Source: Escherichia phage vB_EcoS_SCS31. From it: a stretch of DNA of 46,054 nucleotides. Numbering within the stretch: position 1 is the stretch's first letter; each line of letters begins with the position of its first letter. Location: the sequence record ON081052; one strand, 5' to 3'. Shown here in pieces: positions 17,224 through 41,040 of this stretch. The notes under the pieces are model-generated. The model saw only the letters and a program-made list of their open reading frames with translations, did not search any database and was not told where the DNA came from. A program made the translations under genes and the position numbers.

Positions 17224-17721
17224 ATGAACTGGAATGATATTTTTGAGTATAGAGATGGGGTTCTTTATTGGAAGATTTCAACAAGCAACAAATCAAGAAA
17301 AAAGATTGGTGATGTTGCGGGTAATCAAATGAATGATGGATACATAATGGTTCAGGCATTTGGCAAAAGAATGCTTGCTCATAGGGTTGTTTGGGAAATG
17401 CATAATGGCAGAATAACTAATGGCATGCATATAGACCATTTAAACCACATAAGGAATGACAACAGGATAGAAAACCTAAGACTGGTGTCAAGAACAGAAA
17501 ACAACAGGAATAAATCACTGTCAAAAGTAAACAAAACAGGTGTTTCAGGAGTTAGATTAAAAGATGGGCTATTTGAGGTTTCGATAGGTGGAGAAAAAAA
17601 CAAGACTTACATAGGAAGGTTCTACACACTGGATGAGGCTAGAGCAGCAAGGAAATGCGCAGAATTTGAACTTAATTACCACAATAATCATGGGGATTGC
17701 AATGGCGATAGACACATTTAA
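17224..17721 (+). CDS. HNH homing endonuclease
   Basis: HNH core HRVVWEMHNG...HIDHLNH...RIENLRLVSRTENNRNK; paralog of 39194-39688. Confidence 0.8.
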   Translation: MNWNDIFEYRDGVLYWKISTSNKSRKKIGDVAGNQMNDGYIMVQAFGKRMLAHRVVWEMHNGRITNGMHIDHLNHIRNDNRIENLRLVSRTENNRNKSLSKVNKTGVSGVRLKDGLFEVSIGGEKNKTYIGRFYTLDEARAARKCAEFELNYHNNHGDCNGDRHI

Positions 17722-29257: not shown

Positions 29258-32074
29258 CGAAGCTGTATTTACCTGAAGATATGCACCATTAGTTGCACCA
29301 AACCATGCGTAAGCAGATCCGTAAGTTGTTGGGTTGTCATTTAAAATGAAATCACCCGCTCTAATTACGCACTTTGCTCCATATGTATCAGTGGGTCTTG
29401 CACTAAACCCATAGTCAACATATCTAAAACCAACCTTCGTTACGTTATCGTTAAGCGGGAAGATCCTTAAGAAGCTGGAATCTCTAAAGTCATTGTTCCT
29501 GAAAATTCCTCCTGTAAAGTTATCCATATCAAACATTGTTGTTAAACTTGAAGCAACAGTATTCATGAACTTGTTGCCTTCATATGTCGGAGCTACTACT
29601 TCATAGCCAACTCTTAGCTGAACAAATCCCCCATCAATAATATTGTCCTTGACTATTGGATATTGCCCGCCGATTGCTAAGCCACCAAACCCAGGTGTAA
29701 ATTTGCAACTATTATTACTAAATATAGTGCCAACCCACGCCTGATTTGTAAGGTATGGTGCCTTAGTGTCTGTCATGGTGTTCCCGGTGATAATCAATCC
29801 ATTCTTGGCCTGGATTCCCTCCTGGTAGCCCTGAATCGCTACGCCGCCACCAATCATAATGTTGCTGGATATAATAATGTTGCTCAACCCCTCATTAACA
29901 CCCCAATCACTTTCTGCATCATTTGTTATCAGTAAGTAGTGAGAAGAAGCCCTGCCAGTAGCGTCCGTAGTTATAATGCTTGTATTGCCTTTGCATATAA
30001 CATTGTTTGCCGCAAAAACCTCAACAAACATACCAGCACCTTCGTAGTAGTTATCCGTAACCGTTACGTTATTGCCAGCCGGGGTTATCCTTGACTGGAT
30101 AGATATTGGATAATAGAACTTGTTGGCGTGAGCGTAAGACCTTCGGCTTCCCTCGGATATTGCATAATCCTCCGCGAAAGTATGCCATGCCCTTCCTGAC
30201 TGTTTTGTTGTGTTTCCTATAAACTCTGAGTAGTCACAGTTTCTTGTGATTAAGCAGTAGTTAGCGTTGTATCTGAAGCTTGAATTTCTAAGAGATACGA
30301 ATGCATTAGGTAAGCCATTAAGAGCATCGGCATTAACAAAGGCCCTCGAGGCATTAACCTCCATACCCTCGATCACAACTGATGCGCATCCTTCAACCAT
30401 AAAACCAAACCAGTCTTCTCTTGGTTTATGCTCTGTATCCGTTGGTTGGATTGAGTAATCTGAAAAGTCAGTATTCCAGTTGAGTCCGCTAGCTTTAAAT
30501 GTGCAATATTTAAGCCCGAAAACAACCCTCTCGGGTGATGTGCTTCCAGAGATATCAATATCAACATCATTATTGGCAAAAATGTCAACAGTAAGTCCAT
30601 TGAGGAAGAATGCCGTTTGCCTTAACACTCTGTACTTATCATTGTACTGAACACCATCGGAGAATGAGACTTTCAGTCTTCCAGCGCTAATTCTTACCTT
30701 CCTGTTTGTATTGTGACCAAGGTTTATACATGCCATAACCGAGGCGTTTGATTCATTAACTCCAGACACATCATGACCAGCCCATTCGGTATGGATATCA
30801 TCAACACCTCCCGTAAACCTAACCCAGCAACCATTTTTACCTGGTGATGTCTCACCCGCTCCGCTAAGGAATCCTGGGAGCGTGGAATATGTACCATCAA
30901 ATGGAACTGTTGGGCTAAAGATGGTAACCCCATTGTGACTACTCTTGCTTACTGATGGATCCCAGTAAAACAAACCACCTCCAGAGTTTGCTCCAGAAAT
31001 ATAAGACCTGACATTTGCCAAGTTTCCATTCGTAGTTGGTTGCCGGATTAGTTCATAAATTGAATTAACTGAAGATAGCCCTAAATTACTCCTGGCAAGG
31101 CTTTTATCTTCAATATCAGAGAAATTCAATGATTTGTTGAAAGTCTCAGATTTTGAATAAACATCAAGTAAGCCCCTTACTCGCTGGGCGCTAGCTCCGC
31201 CAACCTGACTTCCTGATGCGACATAAAGCGCCTCTCTTGAATAGTAAGTTTTGCTTGGTGCCGTGCCAGTCTGAGTTAAATCAATCACCCTGTACGCATT
31301 ATCTGAGCCGGTAGATGCTGAAACTTGTATGTTCTTAACACCAGTAAGCCCCCTTGCTGACTTAACCTCAATCGTACAAAGTGTGCTATCGGAGTAGGTT
31401 GTATTTATCACCTCTGGAGCGTTGATCATTGCTGACTTTTGGCATAGGTATCTAGCCCCGGACTTGAAATCAAACGTATTCCAGTCAAGTTCTGTCAACT
31501 GAGGTGTATTCGAGCCACCAATACCAATATTGGCAAGAGTTACCAAAGTACCAGCGTCACCAGCATTATTAATTGCTGCAATTGTAGCGTCACGGGCAGC
31601 TGTTGTTGTGTTTCTTGCACTAACAGCAGTAGCAGCGCTATCTGCGGCGGCAATCTGGCTAGCTAAAGCATCCGCTGCTCCTTGCACTGACTGGCTTGCC
31701 AATTGCTCAAAGCGAGGCCAATCAAAAGAATCCTGACCAATGAAATCAATCAGGCTCTGAATGCTAGTTTCCCTACTCTGATAATAACGCAGAGTCTCTG
31801 CAACATTCTGAGCCAAACCCTGAACGGTAATCCCATCGTGAGCAAGGATCGCATAACCAGTTCCGGCAGGAACAGTTTCAGAGTTAGGGTTGTAAACATT
31901 CAATCTGGTATCGCTGATAATTTCTGAGATGGTGTAAATCTGTACTGGTTCAGTTTTAAATACGATGGTTGCACCAACTCTGATCAGTGTAAGTGGCATG
32001 CTCCATGTCGTCCCAACGCCAGTTACCTCGCCATTTGCAGCTAGTGAAGCTGTTCCAAGATCATAAATTGCCAT
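29255..32074 (-). CDS. tail fibre / tailspike-like protein, possible depolymerase (approx 939 aa)
   Basis: Ala-rich helical segment (AADSAATAVSARNTTTAARDATIAAINNAG) then long Gly/Asn/Thr-rich region suggestive of beta-helix; ATG 32074 with RBS GGAGAC. Confidence 0.65.
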   Translation of the reverse strand: MAIYDLGTASLAANGEVTGVGTTWSMPLTLIRVGATIVFKTEPVQIYTISEIISDTRLNVYNPNSETVPAGTGYAILAHDGITVQGLAQNVAETLRYYQSRETSIQSLIDFIGQDSFDWPRFEQLASQSVQGAADALASQIAAADSAATAVSARNTTTAARDATIAAINNAGDAGTLVTLANIGIGGSNTPQLTELDWNTFDFKSGARYLCQKSAMINAPEVINTTYSDSTLCTIEVKSARGLTGVKNIQVSASTGSDNAYRVIDLTQTGTAPSKTYYSREALYVASGSQVGGASAQRVRGLLDVYSKSETFNKSLNFSDIEDKSLARSNLGLSSVNSIYELIRQPTTNGNLANVRSYISGANSGGGLFYWDPSVSKSSHNGVTIFSPTVPFDGTYSTLPGFLSGAGETSPGKNGCWVRFTGGVDDIHTEWAGHDVSGVNESNASVMACINLGHNTNRKVRISAGRLKVSFSDGVQYNDKYRVLRQTAFFLNGLTVDIFANNDVDIDISGSTSPERVVFGLKYCTFKASGLNWNTDFSDYSIQPTDTEHKPREDWFGFMVEGCASVVIEGMEVNASRAFVNADALNGLPNAFVSLRNSSFRYNANYCLITRNCDYSEFIGNTTKQSGRAWHTFAEDYAISEGSRRSYAHANKFYYPISIQSRITPAGNNVTVTDNYYEGAGMFVEVFAANNVICKGNTSIITTDATGRASSHYLLITNDAESDWGVNEGLSNIIISSNIMIGGGVAIQGYQEGIQAKNGLIITGNTMTDTKAPYLTNQAWVGTIFSNNSCKFTPGFGGLAIGGQYPIVKDNIIDGGFVQLRVGYEVVAPTYEGNKFMNTVASSLTTMFDMDNFTGGIFRNNDFRDSSFLRIFPLNDNVTKVGFRYVDYGFSARPTDTYGAKCVIRAGDFILNDNPTTYGSAYAWFGATNGAYLQVNTAS

Positions 32075-37985: not shown

Positions 37986-39122
37986 ATGGCAGTAGCAAAG
38001 ATTACCAACGATCAGTTAGCAGAAGAATTAAAAAACGGCCTGACTAACAAGGCGATCGCAGAGAAGTATGGCATGAACATTCGCAACGTTGAGCTTCGTC
38101 GCAGCAAGTTAGCTAAGCAGGGTGATTGGCATGGTAATGAAGGTATCAAGAAGCTAGTTCCGGACGGCTACTTGGTAAAAGGCACCTCAACAATGATTGA
38201 TGCGGATGGGAACGAGAAAATCAGATGGGTTAAGACTTCAATAGATAATGAGCGCCTTGAGGTTTTAATGGAGCAAGCTAGAGAAGCATTCTGCTCTGAT
38301 TTGCCAAAGGCTATCCCATCTGAATCACCGAATGTTAACTTTGATGATAACACGCTTGCGATGTATCCAGTTTTTGATTTGCACATTGGGGCGATGGCTC
38401 ACAAACATGAGTGTGGCGAAAACTACGATACAGCAACAGCAGAGAAGGTTATGAATGGTTTCTTTGACTACGCTGTAGATAAGGCTCCGAACTCAAAGAA
38501 TGCTGTACTTGGTATTGGTGGCGATTTCCTACATTACGATTCCCTGGAGGCTAAAACCCCGGCCTCAGGCCATATCTTAGACTCTGACAGTCGTTACGCT
38601 AAGATTGTTTATGTCGCAATCCGTTCAGTGCGACGTGCAATCTTTCGAATGATGGAGAAGCATCAAGTTATTGATATTAAGGTGATAAGTGGAAATCACG
38701 ACGAGGCAGGGATGGTTTGGCTTCGCGCTGCGCTTGCTGCATTTTATGAAGACGAACCGCGCGTAAACGTTGATGTTAGCCCAGCCGCAATGATGATGAC
38801 CAACTTTGGAACGACTCTTATTGGATACACCCACGGGCATCAAATGCGCAAAGCCGATACTCGACTAACTGTTATGGCAACTGATTTTCGTAAGTTATTT
38901 GGTCAAAGTGAGTATGTTTACACACATAGTGGCCACTGGCATTCGCAGAAGATTACAGAAACAAACTTGGGAATTGATGAGGTTCATGGGCAGCTTGGAA
39001 GTCCTGACGCGTACTCCGCAAATGGCGGCTGGCGCTCTCAACGTCAAGCGGCAGTTATTGTCTACCACAAAGAATTCGGTGAAGTTGGCCGATTCATTTG
39101 TCGCCCTAAAATGTTTAGCTAA
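37986..39122 (+). CDS. calcineurin-like metallophosphoesterase with N-terminal HTH-like segment
   Basis: Phosphoesterase signatures GIGGDFLHYD, ISGNHDE, YTHGH; N-terminal ITNDQLAEELKNGLTNKAIAEKYGMNIRNVELRR resembles an HTH. Confidence 0.55.
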   Translation: MAVAKITNDQLAEELKNGLTNKAIAEKYGMNIRNVELRRSKLAKQGDWHGNEGIKKLVPDGYLVKGTSTMIDADGNEKIRWVKTSIDNERLEVLMEQAREAFCSDLPKAIPSESPNVNFDDNTLAMYPVFDLHIGAMAHKHECGENYDTATAEKVMNGFFDYAVDKAPNSKNAVLGIGGDFLHYDSLEAKTPASGHILDSDSRYAKIVYVAIRSVRRAIFRMMEKHQVIDIKVISGNHDEAGMVWLRAALAAFYEDEPRVNVDVSPAAMMMTNFGTTLIGYTHGHQMRKADTRLTVMATDFRKLFGQSEYVYTHSGHWHSQKITETNLGIDEVHGQLGSPDAYSANGGWRSQRQAAVIVYHKEFGEVGRFICRPKMFS

Positions 39123-39170
39123 TAGCACATTTTGTTAAAACAGTAGCCGCGAAAGCGGCTATTATTGTTT
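39121..39170 (+). promoter_or_regulatory. phage promoter, palindromic motif class (TTGTTAAAA subtype)
   Basis: AATAGCACATTTTGTTAAAA followed by hairpin TAGCCGCGAAAGCGGCTA. Confidence 0.45.
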
Positions 39171-39193
39171 TATACAAACGAGAGGGGATTTAA

Positions 39194-39688
39194 ATGAATT
39201 GGAATGATTTTCTTGAGTATAGAGATGGCAGGCTTTACTGGACTGACCCGCATTCAACAAAACTCAAGCCAGGTGATGAGGCTGGTAGCAGGCATCATAG
39301 GGGTTATTGGTACATTCGCAGATATGACAAAACAATGTCAAGGCACCGAATCGTATGGGAGATGCACAACGGACCAATACCAGAAGGCATGGAGATAGAT
39401 CATATAAATCACGTCCCTGGAGATGACAGGATTGAAAACCTAAGAATGGTCACAAGAAGGCAAAACAATCAAAACAAAAAATTAGATGGAAGAAATACAA
39501 GCGGACACGTCGGGGTAAGCTGGAGCAAGAAGACAAACAAATGGAGAGCAATGATAGGCATAAAGGGAGAGGACGGAAAGAGGAAAACTTTATACGTTTA
39601 CTATGGTGATTCTTTCGATGACGCAGTGTCAGCAAGAAAGAGAGCTGAAGTTGAGTACTCATTTCACGAAAATCACGGAAGAAGCTAG
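39194..39688 (+). CDS. HNH homing endonuclease
   Basis: HRIVWEMHNGPIPEGMEIDHINH ... RIENLRMVTRRQNNQNK; N-terminus nearly identical to 17224 product. Confidence 0.8.
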   Translation: MNWNDFLEYRDGRLYWTDPHSTKLKPGDEAGSRHHRGYWYIRRYDKTMSRHRIVWEMHNGPIPEGMEIDHINHVPGDDRIENLRMVTRRQNNQNKKLDGRNTSGHVGVSWSKKTNKWRAMIGIKGEDGKRKTLYVYYGDSFDDAVSARKRAEVEYSFHENHGRS

Positions 39689-39689
39689 A

Positions 39690-39738
39690 AATAGCACTTT
39701 TTGCCTAAAGCATGCCGTATAAATGCGGCATAATTACC
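39690..39738 (+). promoter_or_regulatory. phage promoter, palindromic motif class
   Basis: AATAGCACTTTTTGCCTAAAG, hairpin GCCGTATAAATGCGGC, CATAATTAC, CATCGAAACGAGA. Confidence 0.45.
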
Positions 39739-39764
39739 ACATCGAAACGAGATGAGGAATTGTA

Positions 39765-40238
39765 ATGATTTACGTATTTGATATCGATGGAACTATAGCT
39801 AATAATGAACATAGAAGTCACCTCTTGCCATACAGTGACCTTCACTTGACTTCAAGTTGGAAGGATTACAATAAAGCCTGTTCTGGAGACTCACCAATAA
39901 TCCCAATGATAAACATGATGAACAAACTTGCGGAATTATGTCAGGTTTACATTATGACCTCCAGAAGTGATGAAGTTGAATGGAGAACACTTGAGTGGCT
40001 TCAGGATAATGAGGTTGAGTATGATTCGATATACATGAGAAGTCGACATGACAACCGAAAAGATTACAAAATAAAAGAGGAATGGCTTAATGAAATCAGT
40101 GGTGGCGATAAAAGCAATGTGGTTATTTTTGAAGATAACCCACAAGTAATTAAGCACCTAAGGAGTTGCGGATACACCGTTATGGCCGTATGTGAATATG
40201 AAGAACTACCTAAAGATTGCGAATCTCACGGAGAATGA
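39765..40238 (+). CDS. HAD-superfamily phosphatase / nucleotidase (putative)
   Basis: N-terminal FDIDGTIA (DxDGT) motif typical of HAD phosphatases. Confidence 0.5.
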   Translation: MIYVFDIDGTIANNEHRSHLLPYSDLHLTSSWKDYNKACSGDSPIIPMINMMNKLAELCQVYIMTSRSDEVEWRTLEWLQDNEVEYDSIYMRSRHDNRKDYKIKEEWLNEISGGDKSNVVIFEDNPQVIKHLRSCGYTVMAVCEYEELPKDCESHGE

Positions 40239-40795
40239 AAATGACTAAATTATTTATCCTTAATGGCCCCGCTGGAGTTGGTAAGGATACTATAGCGGAT
40301 ATCATGGTTGAGACTGGTGTCGCCAAAGAAAAGGTATCATTCAAGTCACCAATGTTTAACGTTGCTAGAGGTATTCTTTCAATAGATGAATTCGATTGGT
40401 TTATTGAAAACTACAACAATCGCGACGAGAAGGAGAAACATCAGAAAATTCTAGGTGGAAAAAGCATTCGAGAGTTCATGATCTGGATTAGCGAGTCTGT
40501 AATGAAGCCAGTCTTTGGTGATGATGTTTTTGGTAAAAGGCTCGCCCAGTCACTTAGTGATGGTTGCTACATTTGCGCTGACGGTGGATTTGCTAGCGAG
40601 ATTAAGCCACTGATCGACGCTGGTGTTGAGGTCACGTTAATCAGATTGCATAGGGCGGGGCACACATTTGATGGCGATAGTCGCTCATACATTCACGGGG
40701 TGTGCGCAAGAGAAATTGATGTTCGTGTTGTTGGTGGTGATATTGATGGAACATCAGCATTGGTAAGGCACGTAATAAATAGCACTAATTGCTAA
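40235..40795 (+). CDS. P-loop kinase, dNMP-kinase-like (putative)
   Basis: Walker A GPAGVGKDT near N-terminus; stop lies in promoter copy. Confidence 0.55.
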   Translation: MKMTKLFILNGPAGVGKDTIADIMVETGVAKEKVSFKSPMFNVARGILSIDEFDWFIENYNNRDEKEKHQKILGGKSIREFMIWISESVMKPVFGDDVFGKRLAQSLSDGCYICADGGFASEIKPLIDAGVEVTLIRLHRAGHTFDGDSRSYIHGVCAREIDVRVVGGDIDGTSALVRHVINSTNC

Positions 40796-40863: not shown

Positions 40864-41040
40864 ATGACTAAAATGATTTATTGCACCAAGAACAACTCCA
40901 AGACGCTTCCATTTACAGTTAACCAGCCGTACAATGCAGAGTATCAGGGTGACGGATATTACAAGATTTACGGAGACGATATGACGTGGATTTTAGCACC
41001 GATTGATGGTTCGCTTGTTGAATTTATTATCGCAGAATAG
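40864..41040 (+). CDS. hypothetical small protein
   Basis: ATG 40864 after conserved leader. Confidence 0.3.
   Translation: MTKMIYCTKNNSKTLPFTVNQPYNAEYQGDGYYKIYGDDMTWILAPIDGSLVEFIIAE

Follow-up and report, generated by a model that had tools for sequence, protein, structure and literature searches.

T1-like phages are abundant, notorious laboratory contaminants whose nucleotide economy is poorly understood. A survey of 522 Drexlerviridae described a layout of exonuclease, 'PNK', deoxynucleoside monophosphate (dNMP) kinase and lysis genes, noted occasional HNH genes and a DUF7244/SH3 gene within it, and proposed a role in nucleotide supply (PMC13164509, 2026). In that survey the exonuclease is persistent (508 of the 522), 'PNK' and dNMP kinase belong to the accessory genes of the site, and their combination with the SH3 gene in one phage is rare, with seven instances. 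Here we analyze the corresponding locus of Escherichia phage vB_EcoS_SCS31 (record ON081052), positions 37,986 to 40,795 of a window of 46,054 bases, the whole stretch analyzed, which is a complete Guelphvirus genome (Drexlerviridae, Braunvirinae). The locus encodes a metallophosphoesterase (MPE) with a putative N-terminal helix-turn-helix (HTH), an HNH endonuclease, a HAD phosphatase and a P-loop kinase; its genes and their order are identical to the described layout, and the DUF7244/SH3 gene that follows places this phage among those with the rare combination (Table 1).

The genes and their layout are therefore already known from the survey, and likewise from two annotated genomes. In the RefSeq record of the close relative Escherichia phage vB_EcoS_ACG-M12 (NC_019404) the four genes appear as 'DNA repair exonuclease', 'HNH endonuclease', 'polynucleotide kinase' (the HAD gene) and 'hypothetical protein' (the kinase), and the curated T1 record annotates the same genes with HHpred notes that name SbcD, T4 Pnk and T4 dNMP kinase. 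The locus is real but ordinary and accessory. While the survey handles the genes by annotation only, the present analysis establishes natural HAD-kinase fusions, an island in Kagunavirus and a relocation in T1; it thereby adds that the HAD-kinase pair moves as a unit and that unrelated genomes again place the MPE next to it. Three components make up the interval: an MPE that persists across Drexlerviridae, a selfish HNH gene, and a probably coupled HAD-kinase module with its own promoter-like motif.

Table 1. Coordinates of the locus and of related elements elsewhere in the window
Feature	Position	Strand	Remarks
HTH-metallophosphoesterase gene	37986..39122	+	378 aa; PHROG 704 'DNA repair exonuclease'; MPE core ~ residues 120-372
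LuxR/GerE-like HTH segment of the MPE	38007..38138	+	residues ~8-51; weak but concordant evidence
Promoter-type motif AATAGCACATTTTGTTAAA	39121..39166	+	overlaps the MPE stop codon; followed by G+C-rich hairpin and T-run (terminator-like); left border of the HNH insertion
Free-standing HNH homing-type endonuclease gene	39194..39688	+	164 aa; HNH_3 plus weak AP2
Motif copy AATAGCACTTTTTG	39690..39703	+	bounds the HNH insertion on the right; promoter-like, precedes the HAD gene
Stand-alone HAD phosphatase gene, T4 Pnkp phosphatase-domain family	39765..40238	+	157 aa
P-loop kinase gene, T4 gp1 (dNMP kinase) fold	40241..40795	+	184 aa; 192 aa if TTG 40217 is the start
Third motif copy	40778..40791	+	2 mismatches; within the last kinase codons; encodes ...NSTNC*; precedes the DUF7244 gene
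DUF7244 gene	40864-41040		58 aa; DUF7244 match 2e-29; SH3-like lysis-module protein
tRNA-Arg(UCU)	3487-3561		34 kb from the cluster
Second HNH_3-type endonuclease gene	17224-17721		between tape-measure and minor-tail genes; 46% identical to the gene at 39194
Promoter-like element copies	1305, 13124, 25740(-), 33662, 37203, 39121, 39690, 40778, 46001(-)		weaker copies at 30112 and 31377(-)

As a function for the three enzymes we tentatively favor DNA-precursor salvage, at somewhat less than an even chance. The MPE would act as a nuclease of the manganese type that binds DNA, whether of the host or damaged, and frees 5'-dNMPs from it; the HAD phosphatase would strip 3'-phosphates from ends or nucleotides that would otherwise stall the nuclease or lead nowhere; and the kinase would turn dNMPs into the diphosphates needed for phage DNA synthesis. 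The analysis shows families, folds, active-site residues and gene linkage; the substrates, without exception, and the sequence of reactions are what we infer from them.

Judged by its sequence, the HAD protein is clearly a genuine phosphatase of the T4 Pnkp type, standing alone. It matches Pfam HAD_PNKP (PF25109) at 4.6e-17, with 62.9 bits against a cut-off of 27.6, and carries the motif FDIDGT, in which the DxDxT nucleophile motif is complete, including T10. A 12-sequence profile retrieves Pnkp1 (4XRP; 6e-24) and T4 Pnkp (5UJ0/1LTQ; ~1e-19 to 1e-18) from the PDB, the next unrelated HAD protein following at 6e-4. In T4 Pnkp the residues D165, D167, R176, R213, D254 and D278 are reportedly essential for 3'-phosphatase activity, and they align with D6, D8, R17, R67, D100 and D124 of the phage protein. 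The family is thus common to T4 Pnkp (PseT), to Pnkp1 of the Pnkp1-Rnl-Hen1 system and to this locus. However, the phosphatase domain of PseT is fused to a Pnk-type kinase, whereas here it forms a protein of its own, has an insert of ~14 residues (LLPYSDLHLTSSW...) absent from T4 Pnkp and Pnkp1, is partnered by a kinase of another fold family, and occurs in a genome without an annotated ligase. A further stand-alone copy, 45% identical, overlaps the end of nrdB in a Krischvirus; the second HAD match elsewhere in that genome is presumably pseT.

The nearest relative of the partner kinase by predicted structure is the dNMP kinase gp1 of T4. The P-loop GPAGVGKDT agrees with the GxxxxGKD[TS] pattern of the gp1-type fold, the helical NMP-binding insert is present, and PHROG 139 ('dNMP kinase') is matched at 5.6e-45. 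The structural model is confident (predicted local distance difference test, pLDDT, 92.8) and has T4 gp1 as top match in both searches, followed by adenylate-kinase-like proteins and phosphomevalonate kinase, while no polynucleotide kinase occurs among its best 50-60 structural matches. The relationship is a distant one. Identity to T4 gp1 (PDB 1DEK) is only ~16-17%, with 184 residues compared to 241, and the PDTR segment of gp1 reads in the alignment as an invariant DGGF in this kinase family. Pfam and NCBIfam gave no match for the kinase, and searches of PDB sequences with the single sequence and with a profile HMM matched P-loops alone. Alignment to T4 gp1 with hhalign scores weakly (38.6%) with a 22-sequence profile and reaches 91% (E 1e-6) with a 128-sequence profile, over only 74 N-terminal columns.

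Clustered at 50% identity, the kinase family still comprises 4,044 representatives and is thus a large one. Some of its more distant members lie among the following genes: thyA, nrd and an NT5C-type HAD gene in Vequintavirus, nrdA in an Aeromonas phage, and exonuclease and endonuclease genes, which precede it, in a Vibrio podophage. In the Vequintavirus MaxBurger (3004-4205) a kinase homologue of ~31% identity precedes and overlaps an NT5C-type HAD 5'(3')-deoxyribonucleotidase, adjacent to thyA and nrd, which constitutes a second, non-orthologous pairing of kinase and HAD protein. In agreement with the first-pass annotation, whose calls of phosphoesterase, HAD phosphatase and P-loop kinase are all borne out by the family matches, nucleotide salvage remains the best-supported reading, given the fold closest to T4 gp1 and these neighborhoods.

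HAD and kinase are a linked pair. The HAD gene lies upstream of the kinase on the same strand in 69 of 80 kinase-carrying loci from IMG/VR, 27 of them with a spacing within 120 bp and 42 with 140-2,171 bp; the sampled loci are phylogenetically redundant, so that these and the following counts are descriptive only. In the phage itself ATG 40241 is the most likely start of the kinase, rather than TTG 40217, because the N-termini of homologues, the RefSeq annotation and a GGAG 7 nt upstream all agree with it. The 2-nt gap between the HAD stop codon (TGA) and this ATG, and the position of the GGAG Shine-Dalgarno sequence within the last HAD codons, suggest that the two genes are probably translationally coupled. 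Fusions exist in nature: the metagenomic proteins P0293 (403 aa) and P0296 (461 aa) both consist of HAD domain, linker and kinase. P0293 is present on two contigs from different samples, P0296 on a contig of 1.9 kb; in P0293 the residue equivalent to D100 of the HAD protein is replaced, and a scan of IMG/VR with this protein gave no match. An apparently fused HAD-kinase gene in SH6-type phages was rejected, since a single tblastn piece there spans two genes that share a frame and lie 108 nt apart.

The association with the MPE is looser. The MPE gene is directly upstream of the pair in 24 of the 69 loci and has no counterpart within 5 kb in the other 45. T1 has the pair in its left arm (4.9-6.5 kb) and the MPE gene ~35 kb away, at 40.8 kb. 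These observations, together with the persistence of the MPE against the accessory status of 'PNK' and dNMP-kinase genes at the site (PMC13164509), the terminator-like hairpin at which the MPE gene ends and the separate promoter-like motif of the pair, are what would be expected from juxtaposition only: the MPE would be an unrelated nuclease of recombination or replication, and the pair an accessory module for the dNTP pool, parked between the replication and lysis modules. Against this, the adjacency of the three genes recurs in other settings. Besides the position between replication and lysis modules seen here, Kagunavirus fTaEco01 has an Imm-MPE-HAD-kinase island (1533-4055) whose genes overlap at their start and stop codons and run opposite to the tail module that surrounds them, and a 60.7-kb phage contig shows the inverted order, a HAD-kinase fusion followed directly by a full-length homologue of the HTH-MPE (E 2e-125). 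We consider juxtaposition only to be possible, though on the unlikely side.

Both of these other settings have features of their own. In Guernseyvirinae, the MPE gene is part of a small opposite-strand island within the block of tail genes, beside a superinfection-immunity (Imm_superinfect) gene; the island holds HAD and kinase genes in Kagunavirus and lacks them in Jerseyvirus (SETP7 3759-5358). On the 60.7-kb contig (8001-12436) genes for a PAPS-reductase-family protein and a Dam-type methylase come next, and no known relative exceeds 60% protein identity to its fusion protein.

The MPE is a very divergent calcineurin-fold enzyme with motifs like those of Mre11 and SbcD. It matches PHROG 704 at E 1.7e-152 and contains FDLHIG, GGDFLHYD, SGNHDE, THGHQ and SGHWH, so that all five metal-binding motifs of the calcineurin-like superfamily (DxH, GD, GNH[DE], H, GHxH) are present. 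The metal-ligand residues D131, H133, D180, H183, N237, H238, D239, H283, H285, H317 and H319 are invariant in an alignment of 21 sequences. Its divergence is evident from Pfam Metallophos and Metallophos_2, for which the gathering score is not reached, and from the PDB, in which neither sequence nor profile search matched the catalytic part and only the HTH part found counterparts. The motifs DxH[LI]G, GDxxH and GNHD agree with the Mre11/SbcD type and are also like those of the small subunit (DP1) of archaeal PolD. In contrast to Mre11 and SbcD, which have a capping domain, the model ends with the MPE core and has no cap; a gene for a Rad50/SbcC partner is also lacking, as no SMC- or Rad50-like gene is annotated in the RefSeq record of ACG-M12. 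Judging from these sequence features, the protein is most likely a DNA-binding exo- or endonuclease that works without a Rad50/SbcC partner. One segment, residues 319-352 (38940-39041), is strongly conserved, with E325, L328, G329, D331, E332, H334, D341, A342, Y343, G347, G348 and R350 invariant, yet is predicted at pLDDT <50; it may be an element that becomes ordered on binding a partner or substrate. Distant members of the family neighbor genes for SSB and endolysin, follow a holin/endolysin pair, or adjoin a DNA ligase gene or those for dCMP deaminase and thyA.

The same proteins can be combined into another pathway, which the first-pass annotation had raised as a split polynucleotide kinase-phosphatase. 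As a split or non-orthologous enzyme of this kind, the HAD protein would clear 3'-phosphates or 2',3'-cyclic phosphates, the gp1-fold kinase would phosphorylate the 5'-OH of DNA or RNA breaks, the MPE would trim and a host ligase would seal. The family of the phosphatase speaks for the idea: the HAD protein belongs without ambiguity among the Pnkp phosphatases and keeps all six residues essential in T4, and it is paired with, or in some phages fused to, a P-loop kinase in the order phosphatase-then-kinase. The MPE beside the pair in three contexts and the DNA ligase next to a distant MPE homologue fit as well. On the other side, no Pnk-type 5'-kinase domain is fused to or paired with the HAD protein, and no ligase is annotated among the 79 features of the ACG-M12 record. 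Because of the kinase fold, the missing ligase annotation and the nucleotide-metabolism neighborhoods of related kinases, salvage is favored over end healing, which we regard as unlikely.

A broader version of end healing takes its model from eukaryotes. Mammalian PNKP, a HAD 3'-phosphatase followed by a 5'-kinase, acts alongside Mre11 in end processing. The order of domains is alike in the phages, where the two are fused in P0293 and P0296 and an Mre11-like MPE adjoins; the kinase, however, is not of the Pnk type and the FHA domain is absent; action on polynucleotide ends is conjectural here. That MPE, HAD phosphatase and gp1-fold kinase could form a portable end-processing system analogous to Mre11 plus PNKP, in which a nucleotide-kinase fold displaces Pnk as the 5'-kinase, appears to us quite doubtful.

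The N-terminal HTH of the MPE is supported weakly but consistently by sequence comparison and modeling. Residues 8-51 align with the LuxR/GerE HTH of SsrB, EsrB and FixJ (E 0.17-1.4), and weak matches are obtained to NCBIfam TtrR/FixJ (0.002-0.05) and Pfam HTH_24 (0.066). AlphaFold predicts three helices at residues 8-44 with pLDDT 65-81, and homologues from Vibrio, Rhodobacter and Salmonella phages have sub-threshold HTH matches of their own at the same position. The HTH-like segment noted at first pass is thus plausible; the combination, then thought unusual, is the standard architecture of PHROG 704, for which 2,056 phage records give matches.

An HTH joined to a phosphoesterase also evokes counter-defense or regulation, with an MPE that hydrolyzes second messengers or regulates through DNA, and a phosphatase and kinase that reshape signaling or depleted nucleotide pools. 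The cyclic-nucleotide phosphodiesterases MJ0936 and Rv0805 are among the top fold matches of the MPE, a moron-like island of Guernseyvirinae has the genes next to one for superinfection immunity, and the conserved promoter motif AATAGCACTTTTTGYTAAA is one that the HTH could in principle bind. The motifs of the MPE are, however, those of the Mre11/SbcD type, and DNA-sequence specificity of the HTH is without support. No PADLOC or anti-defense family matched the MPE, the HAD protein or the kinase, and literature searches on the Drexlerviridae phosphoesterase, on escape mutants of T1-like phages and on host-DNA degradation by T1 turned up nothing specific, nor any other link to defense. The second-messenger hydrolysis suggested by the first-pass annotation has thus gained no ground, and we consider counter-defense or regulation very improbable.

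The four open reading frames and all motifs quoted for them at first pass are present as described, all on the plus strand; that they form one cluster is not sustained. MPE gene, HNH gene and HAD-kinase pair appear to be separate cassettes in this phage, because copies of a promoter-like motif lie at the MPE stop codon, together with the hairpin, before the HAD gene and in the last kinase codons, and HNH gene and pair thus have one such motif each. In the underlying conserved element, ~16 variable bases separate ATAGCACTTTTTG[T/C]TAAAAC from an extended -10 that resembles TGnTATAAT; CATCGAAACGA and a ribosome-binding site often come next. With at most 2 mismatches it occurs 11 times in the window, compared to 1.4 expected, and 53 of the 99 loci fetched, including T1, carry its 18-mer without mismatch. 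A variable hairpin as part of every copy was largely rejected: spacers fold at -4.0 kcal/mol compared to -2.1 for shuffles, 28% compared to 16% reach -4 or below, and only some copies have a hairpin in the spacer, the conserved part being the upstream 20-mer and the extended -10. Read in frame, the motif encodes ...NST(N/F)C and a stop (40775-40795, and an open reading frame ending at 39138), which explains why the kinase, like several homologues with an otherwise divergent C-terminus, ends in the conserved 'NSTNC'.

The interruption by an HNH gene was likewise recognized correctly. The protein matches Pfam HNH_3 at 1.5e-21, and close relatives such as SU57 and Msk do not have its free-standing gene, although both flanks still align. 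A copy of the motif AATAGCAC[A/T]TTTTG stands at either end of the insertion. Both this phage and T1 carry paralogues of 36-48% identity at further intergenic sites; in T1 one follows the MPE gene and another lies between the HAD and kinase genes. With an HNH domain, and with presence or absence at a fixed intergenic site, the gene behaves, as far as can be read from these comparisons, as a homing-type selfish element inserted at a conserved intergenic promoter motif. PeSL cassettes of T4-type phages serve as recombination or insertion sites. By analogy, the element described here, which borders both the HNH gene and the HAD-kinase pair, may be such a site.

Comparison of the whole window with ACG-M12 shows equal length, 3,058 substitutions and 0 indels; the lack of indels at 6.6% divergence is unusual among natural isolates. 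The substitutions come in blocks, with none in 1-3000, 25-26 kb, 29-31 kb, 36-37 kb or 39.2-46 kb. The HAD and kinase proteins have 100% identity to their counterparts, while the MPE differs at 16 residues, with 83 of the 107 differences in its gene at third codon positions. A link of the cluster to the phage tRNA-Arg(UCU), touched on at first pass, was rejected given the distance between them and because codon use suffices. AGA is a rare codon in E. coli; in 36 phage genes it is used at 15.1 per 1000 codons, or 29% of arginine codons (AGG at 8.5 per 1000), which explains the tRNA by codon supply. In the HNH gene, 16 of 18 arginine codons are AGA or AGG.

What the locus means for these phages depends on the pathway. 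Salvage would explain precursor supply in a phage without annotated polymerase or reductase genes. End healing, if it took place, would mean that polynucleotide repair is solved in a new way here, with a nucleotide-kinase fold, and a portable end-processing system would allow small phages that lack a ligase to repair 3'-phosphate/5'-OH breaks in their own DNA or in host RNA and leave the sealing to host enzymes. The MPE is found in nearly all Drexlerviridae and the phosphatase-kinase pair in many.

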